This document shows, in pieces, positions 37,486-54,043 of a stretch of 64,000 bases of DNA. The notes beneath the pieces are model-generated. The model saw only the letters and a program-made list of their open reading frames with translations, was not told the origin of the DNA and did not search any database. Source of the DNA: Candidatus Poribacteria bacterium. Its GTDB lineage: Bacteria > Poribacteria > WGA-4E > PCPOR2b. Location: positions 1,760,001 through 1,824,000 of the forward strand of contig OZ244587.1 in assembly GCA_965218095.1 (NCBI GenBank). Direction: 5' to 3'. Positions within the stretch are counted from its first letter, which is position 1. Each line of letters begins with the position of its first letter. The position numbers and the translations under genes are program-made.

Positions 37486-37556
37486 GCATGCACGCAACCT
37501 TGCGAAGGTTTGGAACCTTCGCAAGGTTCAGCAGAGGTTTCAGAGGAGAGGAAATT

Positions 37557-48930: not shown

Positions 48931-49362
48931 TTATGCACCAACGTTTGCTTGTAGATAATCAACGATGTGTTGACTAAACGTCTCAAAATCGGTAACGCAC
49001 CTTTGTAGGAACTGATAGATTAGCTCATGGTCGACAGTCATATACCGATGAACAATCACGTTTCGTAGCCCCGGCATGCCAGTGAGCTCCTGTGCAAAAT
49101 CTTGAGGCAGGATGCCGTGTCCACCAAGTCCGAGTATTGCAGATCTACTGTCGGGCGGCTGTTCCAGGTCGCCACCGATAAGCAGATGATTTGCAATGTC
49201 AATCACACACTAGATTGCCGTTTGCAGCGCATAACGAATCATCGATTGATAATTGCGATCTGCTACCGCCTCATCATAACTCAACTGCTGGTAAGTACGG
49301 AGATCTTCGGTATATTCCGAAAGCGTTTGTAACAGGTCTTGGACAGTTTGCGGGTCGACTAT
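48931..49362 (-). pseudogene. HepT/DUF86 RNase toxin with an ATA start and an internal TAG at 49210-49212
   Basis: IVDPQ...LQTAI*CVIDIANH...GLRNVIVHRY (Rx4H motif). Confidence 0.85.
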
Positions 49363-49364
49363 AA

Positions 49365-49802
49365 TTAATCGGGCTCGTTTCGGGAGTTTTGGGATTTGGC
49401 TTGCTGTCTTTTGAGGTAGTATTGCCATTGAAGGTCACGCAAAGGTTGGGTATCGACATAACGATTGAACGTGTCAACACAGAATGAGACATACCGCTGA
49501 TGTGGGTCATAGATGACAACGCCGTGACGCACGACTTGAAAAGACAGCAGCGGTGGGGCGTTGTTCAGCAGTGCAACATCGATTGCGTCTCGTTGGAAAA
49601 TGCCAATGAGCTCGGTATTGAGGTCTACCACCCGTTGACTGTATTCCGCTTGAGGAATCTGATCAGATAGCAGAACGGCGATGTCGATATCAGATTCACG
49701 GTTTGTGGTGCCTTTCGCCTGCGATCCAAAAAGGTAGGCGAGGACGACATCGCTTGCATCAAAGAGAGATGTAAACTGTGGCTTGTATCGGTTAATATTC
49801 AC
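49365..49802 (-). CDS. MntA-like minimal nucleotidyltransferase antitoxin
   Basis: AYLFGSQAKG...SDIDIAV...IDVALLNNAPP. Confidence 0.9.
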   Translation of the reverse strand: MNINRYKPQFTSLFDASDVVLAYLFGSQAKGTTNRESDIDIAVLLSDQIPQAEYSQRVVDLNTELIGIFQRDAIDVALLNNAPPLLSFQVVRHGVVIYDPHQRYVSFCVDTFNRYVDTQPLRDLQWQYYLKRQQAKSQNSRNEPD

Positions 49803-50056
49803 AGGGTTATTCCTTAGATTACATTAGAACACGGATTCAGTCGGATTTCGCGGAGGTTGCCCGCGTCGGTGGACAAGATTTGTGAAATCCGACGACATCT
49901 GCGATTCTATAAAGGTATAATAACACATCCGATAGCGAACCGACAAATGAATCAGGCAGTTCGTACACAGTGGATCTGATTGTAAATTTGCACCGTGTCA
50001 CCAACCTTCCGAAGGTTATTTTTACGTTTCACACATCACGTTTCAGGTGCAAACTC

Positions 50057-52177
50057 ATGAAACTGACAACCTTAGCGACATGCAATCTCAACCAATGGGC
50101 GCTCGATTTTGAGGGAAATTTGGGGCGGATTATCGAGTCAATTCAGAGTGCCAAGGAAAGCGGAGCACGCTATCGGCTTGGCCCAGAGTTGGAGCTCTGC
50201 GGCTATAGCTGCGAGGACCACTTCCTCGAACAGGATACCTTTCTCCATTCTTGGGAATGCCTCGCCGAAATCCTCAAGGGCGATTTGACCGCCGATATTT
50301 TGTGCGATATCGGCATGCCGGTCATGCACAAAAATGTGCGGTATAATTGTCGTATCTTCGTGCTGGATGGAAAAATTCTCCTCATCCGCCCCAAGCTGAT
50401 TCTGGCGGCCGATGGAAATTACCGTGAAACGCGATGGTTTGCGGCGTGGCAACGTCCACGACAGTTGGAGGAACACTACTTGCCGCGCATGATTCGAGAG
50501 ATTACCGGACAGGAAACAATTTCCTTCGGAGATGCGGCAATCGCTACGCGGGACACTGCTCTGGCCCCTGAAACCTGTGAGGAGCTTTTTGCGCCAAATA
50601 GTCCACATATCTATCTCGGCTTGAATGGGATTGAGATTATCACAAATGGGTCTGGGTCACATCACGAACTTCGGAAACTCGATACGCGGTTGGATCTCAT
50701 CCGCAGCGCCACATCGAAAGGCGGCGGGATTTACCTCTACGCGAATCAACAAGGCTGTGATGGCGGACGGCTCTACTTCGACGGATGTGCGCTGATTGCC
50801 GTCAATGGAGAGGTTGTCGCGCAGGGGTCACAATTTTCGTTGAACGATGTCGAAGTGGTGACTGCTACGGTCGATCTGGAAGATGTCCGTTCCTATCGAG
50901 GCTCGAAGGTCAGTCGCGGAGTTCAAGCCAGCCAATCAGAGCCGGTGCCACGAGTCAACGCGGATTTTGATCTGACCACTGATGATTTTCGCCTTGCTCC
51001 ATGCCTCCCAATTGATGTACAGTACCATACGCCTGAAGAAGAGATCGCCTATGGTCCCGCGTGCTGGCTGTGGGACTACCTGAGACGTTCTGGAGCAGCT
51101 GGATATTTCTTGCCACTCTCCGGCGGTGCAGATAGTTCATCAGTCGCAACGATTGTTGGCTCAATGTGTCAGATGGTTGCAAAAGAGGCGAAAGCGGGCA
51201 ACCAGCAGGTCATCCGAGATGCGTGTCGAATCACTGGAGCGGATGAAGATACCGACTATCTTCCGACGGATGCGCGAGAATTCGCCAATCGGATCTTTTA
51301 CACATGCTATATGGCGACTCAGAATAGCTCAAAGGCGACACGGGACCGCGCGAAAAAACTGACCAATCAGATCAGCTCTTACCACCTGAACGTGAATATC
51401 GATTCGGTCGTCGCTGCCATGGTCTCCCTTTTTGTGCGTTTGACCCGGAAGACACCTCAATTCAAGGTGGAGGGTGGAACGGAGGCGGAGAACAATGCAA
51501 TGCAAAATATTCAAGCCCGTCTTCGTATGGCCCTCTCCTATCTATTGGCGCAACTGCTGCCGTGGGTGCGGGGTAAACGCGGAACGTTGCTGGTATTAGG
51601 CAGTGCAAATGTAGACGAAAGCCTGCGCGGCTATGTGACAAAATACGATTGCAGCAGCGCGGACCTGAACCCAATCGGCGGAATTAGCAAGACAGACCTC
51701 CGCCGGTTTTTGCGATGGGCGGCGGAGAACCTTGGCTACACCGCACTGGTCGATGTGATCAAAGCCCCACCGACAGCAGAACTTGAGCCGATCACCGAGA
51801 CGTATATGCAGGAGGATGAGGCGGACATGGGGTTGACTTACGATGAACTCAGTCGCTTCGGAAAGCTGCGGAAGATTGATCGATGTGGTCCCGTAAGCAT
51901 GTTTGAGAAGCTGGCCCATGAATGGAATCATCTCACGCCCCATGAAGTCGCCGAAAAGGTCAAACGCTTCTTCTACTACTACTCAGTCAACCGCCATAAG
52001 ATGACAACCCTCACTCCCTCGTACCATGCTGAATCGTATTCTCCCGACGATAACCGATTTGACCTCCGCCAGTTCCTTTACAGTGTCCGCTGGGGGTGGC
52101 AGTTTCGCAAAATAGATCAGCTTGTCGAGCAGATGGAGAGTGAAGTGAATAAGCCAATTGACAAATCAGCATATTAA
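50057..52177 (+). CDS. nadE: Glutamine-dependent NAD+ synthetase, eukaryote (Qns1/NADSYN1)-like
   Basis: Nitrilase domain (GPELE, RPK, ETCEEL) plus synthetase domain ([30 protein letters not shown]). Confidence 0.95.
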
Positions 52178-52211
52178 AGCGGAAATCCCGGATGACATCT
52201 ATACTGCCCAC

Positions 52212-52350
52212 TATACTGCCCACCGCCAGAAACTGCGCTTTTTGGCTGTCATTCTGAGGCTTTACGAAGAATCTCAGCGCAAGAGATCCTTCACTGCGTT
52301 CAGGATGACGGGCGCCTCCAAAAGCGCAATTTGACGCGGTGTTGAGTATA
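52212..52350 (-). mobile_element. MITE-like element, shell B, with GTCATTCTGA-type REP cargo
   Basis: tatactgcccaccgccagaaa...gcggtgttgagtata; 12-nt terminal duplication at 52199-52222. Confidence 0.75.
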
Positions 52351-52672: not shown

Positions 52673-54043
52673 CTACAGTTGGCCTGACGACGCGTCCCAG
52701 TTTTCCAGGAGGAATTGGTAAGCCGGGGCCTGGTAACGCTCAAGCAGGAATGCTGACGCGTATTCGGGCAGGTCATCGCCAGTGATGTGAGCCGCCAGCA
52801 ACTCACCCGCCGCCTGAGACCCCATAATCCCGTAGCCGGATAGCGCCCCGATGACATAAGTCCCTTCGATGGGCAGGGGGCCAATTAACGGTCGATTTTC
52901 CGGCGTCTTGCAATAGTACCCACCATCGACATACGTTGCTCTTCCCCGACCAAAATATGCCGACAAACCGGGAATCATCCGGGTGAGGCCACGTATAAGA
53001 ACTTCGGGGTAATAGGAATCAAAAGTCGGCGGCCAGACAGGCTCCTGGGGTGCGCTATCGTACGTCCAAATGACCAAGAGCACGTGGGTGTCCGCGTTCG
53101 TGCGCGGCCGAAAATGGACACCGGCAGGAAACTGACCGAGCAGCCGGCGTGTTTCACCCCGCGCCGCCAGTTTCTCGTGCTCGACTTCGGTCCAGGGTAG
53201 GTAAACTGGGTCGTTCCAAAACATAAGAGACGCCCCGGGTGGCACAATTCCCAGATTATCTCGGAGGGCGATCTTGCCATGCAGTTCATTAAAAACAGGA
53301 AGATCCAACCCTAGCATGGCGCCAACTCGCTTGAGATATGGGCCGGCAGCGATGACGAAGGTGCGGGTGCTGATGTGGTCGCCGGATCGGAGGTAGATGT
53401 GTTGAACCCGGCTGCCGGTGACGGTGACATCTGTCACTCCATCCTGGAGTAAACGAACCCCATGAGTTTGCACCTGATCTAACAACCACCTGCCTAATCG
53501 CTGCGCATCTAGCCACCCACAGCGACGGACGTGCATCGCAGCCACCACATCTTCGGTGACGAAGGGGAACTGCTGTCGGACGAAAGCTCCATCCACCAGC
53601 AGGTCAGCGCCGGTGGGCAGATTGTGAAAGCCTTCAGGCGGAGAAGGGATGTAAGGGGACGGACCCGGGTGCTCTCGGATCGGTCCTGCACCAAGCGCAG
53701 AGATCTCAGCAGCCGCTTGCTTCATGATAGGAATCTGGTGATGCTCGGCCGTTAAGAACACATAACCACGCCGGTTCAATTGGAAAAAATTGTTGGTTTC
53801 TTGAGCCAGTTCTTCCAGCAAGTCAATGGTGCGGTTCATGAAACGCACCATCGCATCGCCGGGACCGGGCCACCAGTTCCGATACGCCTCTGTTCCTTTA
53901 TCACTGGTGAGGGTCAGCGGTGGCCTTTCATCGATCAGTACGATGTCCTTGACCCCTTGCCGGACCGCCAGGTGATATGCGGCGGCAATTCCGGCCATCC
54001 CCGCACCGCAAATGACGACATCCGAATGTTGTTTGGCTGCCAT
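52673..54043 (-). CDS. FAD-dependent oxidoreductase (DAO/sarcosine oxidase-like)
   Basis: CGAGMAGIAAAYHL, AAGP, TPENRPLIGP, SGYGIM. Confidence 0.9.
   Translation of the reverse strand: MAAKQHSDVVICGAGMAGIAAAYHLAVRQGVKDIVLIDERPPLTLTSDKGTEAYRNWWPGPGDAMVRFMNRTIDLLEELAQETNNFFQLNRRGYVFLTAEHHQIPIMKQAAAEISALGAGPIREHPGPSPYIPSPPEGFHNLPTGADLLVDGAFVRQQFPFVTEDVVAAMHVRRCGWLDAQRLGRWLLDQVQTHGVRLLQDGVTDVTVTGSRVQHIYLRSGDHISTRTFVIAAGPYLKRVGAMLGLDLPVFNELHGKIALRDNLGIVPPGASLMFWNDPVYLPWTEVEHEKLAARGETRRLLGQFPAGVHFRPRTNADTHVLLVIWTYDSAPQEPVWPPTFDSYYPEVLIRGLTRMIPGLSAYFGRGRATYVDGGYYCKTPENRPLIGPLPIEGTYVIGALSGYGIMGSQAAGELLAAHITGDDLPEYASAFLLERYQAPAYQFLLENWDASSGQL

Follow-up and report, generated by a model that had tools for sequence, protein, structure and literature searches.

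Is a gene for a eukaryote-type NAD+ synthetase a genuine part of a Candidatus Poribacteria chromosome and, if so, from where did it come? The gene, here called nadE, was examined within a stretch of 64,000 nucleotides (the window). The original prediction had described it as an intronless glutamine-dependent NAD synthetase, closer to yeast, animal and plant enzymes than to typical bacterial NadE, and had proposed either transfer from a eukaryote to a bacterium or a bacterial sister clade of the eukaryotic enzyme. The ORF on the plus strand is a single unbroken reading frame without introns, and all three peptides quoted in that prediction were found in its translation. The product has 706 aa, with the ATG at 50057 and the stop codon, included in the coordinates, ending at 52177; an in-frame GTG lies upstream at 49970, and the relatives of nadE start at the methionine of MKLTT. 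The features of the locus are as follows.

49892-49921, plus strand: sigma-70-like promoter match, ACGACA-18-TATAAT (10 of 12 consensus positions)
50003-50017, no strand assigned: short near-palindrome ACCTTCCGAAGGTT in the 5′ leader, also at 37497-37527
50057-52177, plus strand: nadE, eukaryote-type (NADSYN1/Qns1-type) glutamine-dependent NAD+ synthetase (ORF, translation, Pfam, match to 6ofb)
50072-50899, plus strand: N-terminal nitrilase-like glutaminase domain, residues 6-281 (PF00795, E 3.4e-43)
50186-50188, 50393-50395 and 50576-50578, plus strand: glutaminase catalytic triad E44, K113 and C174 (alignment)
Within the glutaminase domain, plus strand: YRE loop, Y122-R123-E124 (alignment)
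51065-51859, plus strand: C-terminal NAD synthetase (N-type ATP pyrophosphatase) domain, residues 337-601 (PF02540, E 3.8e-26)
51119-51136, plus strand: PP-loop S355-G-G-A-D-S360, an SGGxDS motif (alignment)
52212-52350, no strand assigned: dispersed genome-specific repeat of about 140 bp (MITE/REP-like), just 3′ of the nadE stop

Architecture of the protein and comparison with known NAD synthetases

The CN-hydrolase and NAD synthetase domains are fused in one chain of about 700 aa (Pfam). In an alignment of 20 sequences, bacterial outgroups included, E44, K113 and C174 were invariant, as were S355, G356, G357, D359 and S360, and D531-C532, corresponding to the D-C at the tunnel end, was conserved. 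The human counterparts of E44, C174 and Y122-E124 are Glu45, Cys175 and the YRE loop described in PMC6946656. The N-terminal domain (Glu44-Lys113-Cys174) would hydrolyse glutamine, an intramolecular tunnel would carry the released ammonia to the PP-loop domain at the C-terminus (SGGADS, 355-360), and the latter would adenylate nicotinate adenine dinucleotide and then amidate it to NAD+.

In a phmmer search of the PDB, human NADSYN1 (hsNadE, 6ofb) was the top match (E 5.8e-288, 960 bits, residues 4-696), followed by Cytophaga 3ilv (219 bits) and M. tuberculosis 3dla (79.5 bits). The NadE protein is about 57-68% identical to animal, fungal and algal enzymes, with 58-63% for animals (about 59% for human NADSYN1 by Foldseek and 61-63% for bird and fish orthologues) and 66-67% for Mucoromycota fungi; yeast Qns1 is presumably another of its eukaryotic orthologues. 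It has in common with human NADSYN1 its length, the order of the two domains, the E-K-C triad, the YRE loop, the PP-loop and the tunnel-end D-C, together with the conserved C-terminal NRHK... tail of eukaryotic enzymes. Unlike the human gene, nadE lies on a bacterial chromosome with a sigma-70-like promoter match and without introns, and its product is coupled to bacterial NadA, NadC and NadD. The human tunnel-lining residues Trp54, Trp179, Asp238 and Tyr242 are replaced by Glu53, Phe178, Gly237 and Phe241, as mapped manually from the phmmer alignment (query residue n equals human n+1). By family identity and intact catalytic motifs, nadE is a member of the eukaryote-type family, and from its sequence it is predicted to encode a working NADSYN1/Qns1-type NAD+ synthetase.

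That the protein might be a divergent member of the ordinary bacterial NadE clade, merely eukaryotic in look, was also considered, since two-domain NadE is described as common in bacteria (PMC3376133). The protein passed the domain model TIGR00552 (88 vs 63.65), but reached none of the NCBIfam NadE equivalogs NF002730, NF010588, NF010587 and NF001979 (139.1, 122.2, 74.2 and 62.6 bits vs cut-offs of 473, 479, 255 and 250, respectively). The nearest ordinary bacterial type, represented by Cytophaga hutchinsonii NadE (3ilv) and the nadE of Cytophagales and of a Vibrio plasmid (L106-L109), is likewise two-domain and glutamine-type, and the domain arrangement of 3ilv is similar to that of the NadE model (TM 0.77/0.93). 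However, its identity of 27-31% over 94% of the protein length is below half of that shown by eukaryotes, and it differs by several indels and has no eukaryote-type C-terminal tail. The M. tuberculosis enzyme (3dla, 6ofc) has the same chemistry and both domains, but its type is about 24-25% identical to the NadE protein (BLASTP); M. tuberculosis-like ORFs of about 625-880 aa are the form of most Chloroflexota, and 51 sampled Chloroflexota genomes (a count that includes genome G218) have this form at 25-34% identity. A place in the ordinary clade therefore has hardly any probability, and the eukaryotic likeness noticed at the outset is borne out.

An AF2 model of the protein (pLDDT 91.8) was superposed on 6ofb with TM 0.96/0.97 and an rmsd of 1.4 Å over 696 columns, whereas whole M. 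tuberculosis NadE chains gave TM 0.40 and an rmsd of 22 Å, the low whole-chain value arising because the synthetase domain is positioned differently. The human and M. tuberculosis enzymes are reported to differ by a 103-degree domain rotation and by intra- versus inter-subunit tunnels, the latter in M. tuberculosis (PMC6946656), and the superpositions of the predicted model fit both differences. As the predicted arrangement is human and not mycobacterial, an intra-subunit ammonia tunnel would be expected.

Genomic setting and distribution

The genome is a single 6.35-Mb contig, and bacterial genes lie on both sides of nadE. The GC content of the gene is 0.524 and its GC3 0.574, and its codon-usage distance ranks at the 26th percentile among 988 long ORFs; its composition is native to the genome. 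The promoter match, a consensus match alone, lies about 135 nt 5′ of the ATG, and the same scan found no terminator-like site. The near-palindrome ACCTTCCGAAGGTT has 4 matches in the window vs 0.01 expected, with related words recurring in the genome, while another 5′ leader motif, CAYATCACGTTT, was without enrichment in the window (3 matches vs 0.6 expected). The gene had also been described as flanked by this genome's own repeats. This holds on the downstream side, where the repeat is matched 41 times across the genome, and in 10 cases the match spans 110 or more of the 166 query bases at an identity of 85-90%; the upstream side (50002-50047) is weaker, with 14-mers recurring up to 28 times and exact 17-mers just 2-4 times.

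Continuity with the flanks was seen in contigs of two other runs from two studies, which bridge the 5′ flank and nadE (49800-50343 and 49800-50620) as well as nadE and the 3′ flank (51154-52241 and 50602-52241). Sponge metatranscriptome libraries also hold parts of nadE, these RNA-library contigs being read as presence of the gene only. On the eukaryote-like sequence alone, one might suspect eukaryotic DNA that mis-binning or mis-assembly had placed in a bacterial genome. Against such an artefact stand the single contig with its bacterial neighbours, the downstream genome-specific repeat, the native codon usage, the independent bridging contigs and the strong matches found in 157 of the 158 other genomes of the same Poribacteria order, many of them single-contig chromosomes, so that its probability is close to negligible.

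A search of the genome with PF02540 gave two further matches, a QueC-like PP-loop protein and a GMP synthase, and no second nadE; the gene is thus the only NAD synthetase of this genome. The upstream pathway enzymes NadD (175 bits, cut-off 112), NadA (269 bits) and NadC (207 bits) were found, and the NadE protein would complete an NAD pathway that is otherwise bacterial.

Outside the order, 17 genomes of other Poribacteria orders and classes gave weak matches (E 4e-10 to 9e-4) or none, and all five of those checked encode classic NadE, either single-domain (267-441 aa) or two-domain (544-585 aa). These classic enzymes, which serve the same pathway step, score 249-268 bits against PF02540 vs 94 for the NadE protein, to which they are 22-33% identical (BLASTP), and presumably represent the ancestral state of the phylum. 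Across 185,579 species genomes, relatives of nadE are encoded in 190 candidate stretches, and the best 80 of these include 55 from Poribacteria and 24 from Chloroflexota. The eukaryote-type gene was found in 0 of 400 genomes of an even sample of the phylum Chloroflexota and in 0 of 400 of an even class sample, and in 33 of 167 genomes of one Chloroflexota order. One further Chloroflexota protein, P0081, shares 69-76% identity with Poribacteria and 71-73% with the other Chloroflexota, and comes from an order in which the gene occurs in 1 of 56 genomes (0 of the 55 others); these sequences hint at a separate transfer. Deep-ocean and pelagic MAGs of Poribacteria carry the gene as well, as do Chloroflexota MAGs of other sources.

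Marine contigs with unbroken matches of 57-62% were considered as further bacterial lineages and rejected. In the two of 80 loci checked (L125 and L172), the neighbouring genes are eukaryotic (RPN1, ARID, JmjC, PHD, MORN/filamin), which indicates that these contigs belong to intron-poor picoeukaryotes, not bacteria.

Phylogenetic placement and direction of transfer

Three trees were compared. The first (FastTree, 159 rows) comprised cluster representatives of 620-900 aa only and included a wrongly extracted ORF, L038 (branch length 4.0), for which P0081 was later substituted; the second (FastTree, 84 rows) contained outgroups of the M. tuberculosis type from Chloroflexota (24-25% identity) and of the Cytophagales/Vibrio type; the third (IQ-TREE, LG+C20 PMSF) consisted of 53 of these 84 rows, the longest-branched representatives and the four M. 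tuberculosis-type outgroups being left out. Most eukaryote-side rows were unlabelled cluster representatives (77); labels were obtained from a Chondrus query for red algae and from a eukaryote profile query for animals and Mucoromycota, P0123 was animal-like in a PDB search, and the Atlas cluster taxa were Chordata, Ascomycota and Arthropoda.

Going by the equivalog scores and identities given above, nesting in a broad ordinary bacterial NadE clade is excluded. The bacterial proteins form one deep group that is central among the eukaryotic sequences. In all three trees, this group adjoined red algae or Archaeplastida and was apart from fungi plus animals, with supports of 96 (159 rows) and of 94 and 95 (84 rows), and an SH-aLRT of 91 (53 rows); the mixture-model tree left the bacteria in an unresolved polytomy with the red algae and three unlabelled rows. 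After red algae, the best matches of the Chondrus enzyme were these bacterial proteins. Identities of fungus to bacteria were 63-66% vs 56-59% for fungus to red algae, and those of Galdieria to bacteria were 61-63% vs 60-64% for Galdieria to other red algae; the bacterial proteins are at most as far from any eukaryotic group as such groups lie from one another. The same central pattern would be expected from a sister or from a donor lineage.

One could imagine that a sponge symbiont recently received the gene from its host or from some other animal, as the closest relatives of the genome's gene come from sponge-associated MAGs, parts of the gene are present in sponge metatranscriptomes and the first solved-structure match is human. 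The bacterial proteins, however, group away from animals, which form their own clade (support 100) with fungi. The identity to animals is below that to Mucoromycota, the composition is fully native, and the occurrence in pelagic and other-source MAGs and a within-clade identity as low as 67% likewise speak against an animal source, which we judge very unlikely. In the alignment, the bacterial proteins lack the animal-specific and the opisthokont-specific one-residue insertions. They also lack the red-algal insertions, which places them outside crown red algae, and among the indels of the 20-sequence alignment no character unites bacteria with one eukaryotic group. The EukProt transcriptome proteins P0349 and P0371, which branch together with P0363 beside or within the bacterial group, may be a eukaryotic sister lineage or bacterial contaminants; in a metagenome scan with P0349, the closest match (67%) was a Poribacteria contig.

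We consider it rather probable that the gene is the product of an ancient xenologous displacement, most likely from eukaryote to bacterium and followed by spread between bacterial phyla, and that its product works as a NADSYN1-type enzyme. The ancestor of one Poribacteria order would have taken up this xenolog long ago, and in that order the gene would have displaced the classic bacterial NadE; it would also have passed between Poribacteria and some Anaerolineae (Chloroflexota). Its ultimate source was most likely an early eukaryote, on the red-algal/archaeplastid side or near the crown base, and not the sponge host. Two points favour transfer into bacteria: the type is limited to a single order of Poribacteria and to scattered Anaerolineae, whose kin keep classic NadE, and in the trees the bacteria branch within the eukaryotic radiation. 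From these sequences, the most likely direction is eukaryote to bacterium; it is not settled, because the root is unreliable, the very long outgroup stem (3.9 changes per column to either side of the root) joining long-branched unlabelled rows (as the program warned); long stems and such warnings came with both types of outgroup. Identity to the outgroups is 29-33% for bacterial and eukaryotic ingroup members alike and so has no discriminating power for rooting.

Possible, though doubtful, is the reverse flow, from a bacterium to a stem eukaryote, with the Poribacteria/Anaerolineae clade as descendants or sister of the bacterial donor of the eukaryotic NAD synthetase. The eukaryotic branch has been described as arising from the bacterial two-domain branch (De Ingeniis et al. 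2012, PMC3376133), and the trees do not fix the root. The bacterial proteins are the most consensus-like, scoring highest against the eukaryote-wide profile; their distances to animals, fungi, red algae and picoeukaryotes are about equal, and they lack every lineage-specific eukaryotic insertion seen. Their clade is deep, with 67-70% identity between Poribacteria families vs at most 68% to eukaryote-side sequences. However, the type is missing from the other Poribacteria orders and classes searched and from nearly all sampled Chloroflexota, so that transfer into both phyla from some other lineage would still be needed. Moreover, the clade leaves as wide a gap to ordinary NadE, and no tree set the outgroup on the bacterial stem. 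It is rather unlikely that LECA obtained its NAD synthetase from a bacterial lineage to which the present-day Poribacteria/Anaerolineae enzymes are related. The original interpretation is supported, and of its two alternatives transfer from a eukaryote is the more probable.

Significance of a eukaryote-type NAD synthetase in bacteria

It is uncommon for a core housekeeping enzyme to pass between eukaryotes and bacteria and then become fixed. In the present case, an enzyme of eukaryote type occupies the place of the native one throughout an order of abundant sponge symbionts. The case is not a one-off: the gene is fixed in that order (157/158) and recurs in scattered Anaerolineae.

No published report of a eukaryote-type NAD synthetase in Poribacteria or Chloroflexi was found, the supplementary tree and genome table of PMC3376133 lying outside the search. 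Archaeal-type phosphopantothenate enzymes are another case of foreign-domain enzymes in a Poribacteria cofactor pathway (PMC7883664), which differs from nadE in the pathway and in the donor domain.

As an intronless bacterial gene, nadE provides a human-type NAD synthetase for which expression in E. coli should be worth trying; the human enzyme was expressed in insect cells (PMC6946656). The bacterial version could aid studies of the intra-subunit ammonia tunnel. By their central position among eukaryotic sequences, the bacterial proteins bear on the origin of the eukaryotic enzyme. If their lineage was indeed the donor, these slow-evolving enzymes would preserve a near-ancestral, 'LECA-like' sequence, and a concrete donor group would be available for a universal eukaryotic housekeeping gene.

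Structure and predicted function of the nadE product

The features of nadE and its flanks are as follows (residues refer to the 706-aa product).
50057-52177, + strand: nadE, eukaryote-type NAD synthetase, a single unbroken 706-codon frame from ATG
Residues 6-281: carbon-nitrogen hydrolase domain (Pfam E 3.4e-43)
Residues 337-601: NAD synthase domain (Pfam E 3.8e-26)
50003-50017 (upstream of nadE) and 37497-37527: near-palindromic word ACCTTCCGAAGGTT
52212-52350: copy of a dispersed ~140-bp repeat, just 3' of the nadE stop

The three peptides quoted in the original prediction were all found in the translation of 50057-52177, and the gene is intronless as described. Among solved structures, the protein matched human NADSYN1 first (6ofb; E 5.8e-288, 960 bits, residues 4-696) and Cytophaga hutchinsonii NadE second (3ilv; 219 bits), and M. 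tuberculosis NadE (3dla) was matched in the glutaminase domain only (79.5 bits). The NCBI whole-protein models of bacterial NadE were all missed by a wide shortfall (scores of 139 and 122, where the cut-offs are 473 and 479). On these two grounds the eukaryote-type observation is correct, and the likeness extends beyond a few motifs. That the product is an intact NADSYN1-type enzyme is well supported, and from its sequence it is predicted to be almost certainly active.

The glutaminase triad (E44/K113/C174), the YRE loop (Y122-R123-E124), the PP-loop SGGADS (355-360) and D531-C532 were conserved in the alignment; in PMC6946656, from which the residue roles are taken, an Asp-Cys pair forms the end of the human ammonia tunnel. 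An AlphaFold2 model built from 33 aligned sequences (pLDDT 91.8, pTM 0.91) gave TM 0.96/0.97 when superposed on human NADSYN1 (rmsd 1.4 Å, 696 columns) and 0.77/0.93 on 3ilv; against whole M. tuberculosis chains the TM was only 0.40 (rmsd 22 Å). This contrast would mirror what the same paper describes: a 103-degree difference between the two enzymes in how the domains are placed, with a tunnel that is intra-subunit in the human and inter-subunit in the mycobacterial one. Manual mapping on the 6ofb alignment (query residue n corresponding to human n+1) placed Glu, Phe, Gly and Phe at the positions of the human tunnel-lining residues Trp54, Trp179, Asp238 and Tyr242, respectively; because of such differences, the kinetics may depart from those of the human enzyme.

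Genomic setting of nadE

nadE is a genuine part of the bacterial genome. The window is part of one 6.35-Mb contig (completeness 93.9%, contamination 2.4%), and the genes around nadE are of bacterial kind, encoding two Zn-dependent dehydrogenases, a PhyH fragment, a HepT/MntA toxin-antitoxin pair, a DAO-type oxidoreductase, a BNR protein and TauE. Both GC (0.524) and GC3 (0.574) of nadE were typical of the 988 long ORFs of the genome, among which its codon distance of 0.066 (mean 0.080, sd 0.023) stood at the 26th percentile. Continuity with the flanks was confirmed, as contigs of two other runs from two studies bridged both sides with 0-4 mismatched letters, one contig also having a 12-letter gap. 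Contigs matching parts of nadE with 0-1 mismatches occurred in sponge metatranscriptome libraries, which denotes presence in RNA libraries, not proven transcription.

The earlier view that nadE is flanked by repeats of this genome held downstream, where the ~140-bp repeat has 41 matches in the 6.35-Mb genome (10 covering at least 110 of 166 query bases at 85-90% identity) and in sequence resembles a MITE/REP-like element belonging to it. The upstream side holds a short near-palindrome with genome-recurring words: ACCTTCCGAAGGTT and its variants gave four matches in the window against 0.01 expected, with up to 28 genomic occurrences of related 14-mers. A sigma-70-like promoter upstream of nadE is a consensus match only. 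A perfect 17-nt inverted repeat places TCAGGTGCAAACTCATG across the nadE start codon (50043-50059) and its complement within the DAO-type oxidoreductase gene 3.4 kb away (53461-53477); these are its only two copies in the genome. Directly 5' of nadE, 48931-49802 (- strand) encodes a 91-aa HepT-like RNase and a 145-aa MntA/Pol-beta nucleotidyltransferase, a HepT/MntA-type toxin-antitoxin pair.

No second nadE is present in the genome, since its other two PF02540 matches are a QueC-like PP-loop protein and GMP synthase. The genome encodes NadA and NadC (269 and 207 bits) as well as NadD, which scored 175 bits against a cut-off of 112; NAPRTase gave a weak match only. With these bacterial enzymes leading to NaAD and a eukaryote-type enzyme at the final step, the NAD pathway is a mosaic.

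Distribution among bacteria

The closest proteins (70-87% identity) were assigned by their sources to Candidatus Poribacteria and Chloroflexota. When prokaryotes were scanned with one genome per species (185,579 species), 190 candidate stretches encoded a relative. Of the best 80, with identities of 69-87%, 55 were from Poribacteria, 24 from Chloroflexota (Caldilineaceae, Ardenticatenaceae, Promineifilaceae and other Anaerolineae) and one from an unnamed bacterium. Within the Poribacteria order of the window, all but one of the 158 other genomes (157) had strong matches (67-87% identity), and 17 genomes of other Poribacteria orders and classes gave weak matches in 16 (E 4e-10 to 9e-4) and none in one. 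All five of these 17 that were searched with the NAD synthase family encoded classic bacterial NadE (249-268 bits, against 94 bits for the window protein with the same model), some with a single domain (ORFs of 267-441 aa) and others in a two-domain form (544-585 aa).

The eukaryote-type gene is rare and patchy in Chloroflexota. It occurred in 33 of 167 genomes of the order with Ardenticatenaceae and Promineifilaceae carriers, in none of 400 other genomes sampled evenly across the phylum, in none of 400 sampled evenly across the class, and in none of 55 other genomes of the order of one carrier. A 25-34% identical form on ORFs of ~625-880 aa was found in 51 of the 400 phylum genomes, a count that includes the unpublished genome G218. 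Five Chloroflexota carriers had no full NadE besides the eukaryote-type gene; one of the five also carried a 336-aa NadE-like gene. The Anaerolineae genome G176 was the only carrier among 56 genomes of its order; its protein is up to 76% identical to those of Poribacteria and 71-73% to those of other Chloroflexota, which hints at a separate, later transfer.

A group of Poribacteria MAGs (loci L037, L039, L048 and L063, at least one deep-ocean) split off first in the bacterial clade, and Chloroflexota stood beside the main Poribacteria groups (FastTree, 159 rows; IQ-TREE, 53 rows); these branchings suggest transfer from Poribacteria to Anaerolineae, possibly in more than one event. Ordinary nadE types are also plasmid-borne: a Cytophaga-type two-domain nadE adjoins pncB on ~0.9-Mb Vibrio replicons (plasmids or chromids; loci L108 and L109), with similar genes on plasmids of Hymenobacter and Spirosoma.

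Relation to the eukaryotic enzymes and direction of transfer

Identity of the window protein was 68% to an unnamed EukProt protein, 66-67% to Mucoromycota fungi, 58-63% to animals, 57-63% to red algae, 58% to a plant-like representative, 54% to Lupinus and 27-31% to Cytophagales/Vibrio NadE. Identity to the bacterial proteins was 63-66% for Umbelopsis (61-65% to animals, 56-59% to red algae), 61-63% for Galdieria (60-64% to other red algae), 59-63% for Branchiostoma (53-57% to red algae) and 61-64% for a picoeukaryote gene from a marine contig (57-63% to red algae), whose eukaryotic origin follows from its RPN1, ARID and JmjC neighbours. A profile of 33 sequences across the eukaryote-type family scored bacterial proteins highest, and they were also the best matches of the Chondrus enzyme after red algae. 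As judged from sequence, the bacterial members are central among the eukaryotic ones.

The marine contigs L125 and L172 (84-126 kb), with uninterrupted NADSYN1-type genes by proteasome RPN1, ARID, JmjC, PHD and MORN/filamin genes, are intron-poor picoeukaryote genomes within metagenome collections. A Galdieria phlegrea gene model (P0334, 1088 aa) has ribosomal L6 and NMNAT-like (PF01467) domains ahead of the NAD synthetase domains, and a Lupinus angustifolius protein (P0046, 1201 aa) has a tandem full and partial copy; each could reflect either an error of gene modelling or a true fusion or duplication.

Eukaryote-side rows of the trees were mostly cluster representatives without an organism label. 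In the FastTree analysis of 159 rows, the 80 bacterial rows formed a single clade (support 100), with Chloroflexota (99) among Poribacteria groups, sister (96) to a clade with Lupinus and a Chondrus representative. With 84 rows and eight outgroups, one group (94) was made up of an archaeplastid-like clade (97) and a second clade that joined the bacteria to four unlabelled rows (95); its sister was fungi and animals (94). IQ-TREE (LG+C20+F+G4 PMSF, 53 rows, four outgroups) gave a group (SH-aLRT 91), polytomous inside, of bacteria, six red algae and five unlabelled rows, apart from animals (100) and fungi (100), which were joined (92). Two EukProt rows branched with the bacteria. In both rooted trees a very long stem connected the outgroup to unlabelled rows with long branches and the software flagged long-branch attraction, so that the root is not trustworthy. 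Outgroups were 29-33% identical to every ingroup member; the bacterial clade thus leaves the gap to ordinary NadE unbridged. Red-algal, animal and opisthokont insertions were absent from the bacterial proteins in the alignment, and indels attach the bacteria to no single group.

It is well supported that a foreign type took over from classic NadE in Poribacteria and Chloroflexota, fixed in one order and scattered elsewhere, and that the acquisition is old, its source being neither the sponge host nor any animal. Both readings offered by the original prediction, eukaryote-to-bacterium transfer or a bacterial clade sister to the eukaryotic enzyme, found backing. Transfer from eukaryote to bacterium is modestly favoured, because the type occurs in every labelled eukaryotic group sampled (animals, fungi, red algae, plant, picoeukaryotes) as against small, unrelated bacterial patches whose kin retain classic NadE, all three trees nest the bacteria in the eukaryotic radiation, and the bacterial members share the whole of the long stem that sets the type apart from ordinary NadE. 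It seems rather unlikely that the carriers descend from, or took their gene from, a bacterial lineage to which the eukaryotic ancestor owed its enzyme; their central, insertion-free and slow-evolving sequences speak for such a donor, as does the 2012 inference, in PMC3376133, that the eukaryotic NAD synthetase branch arose from a bacterial one. The finding gives a well-known enzyme family a new taxonomic home and an instance of xenologous displacement; its interest is moderate and would be greater if the bacterial-donor reading were true.
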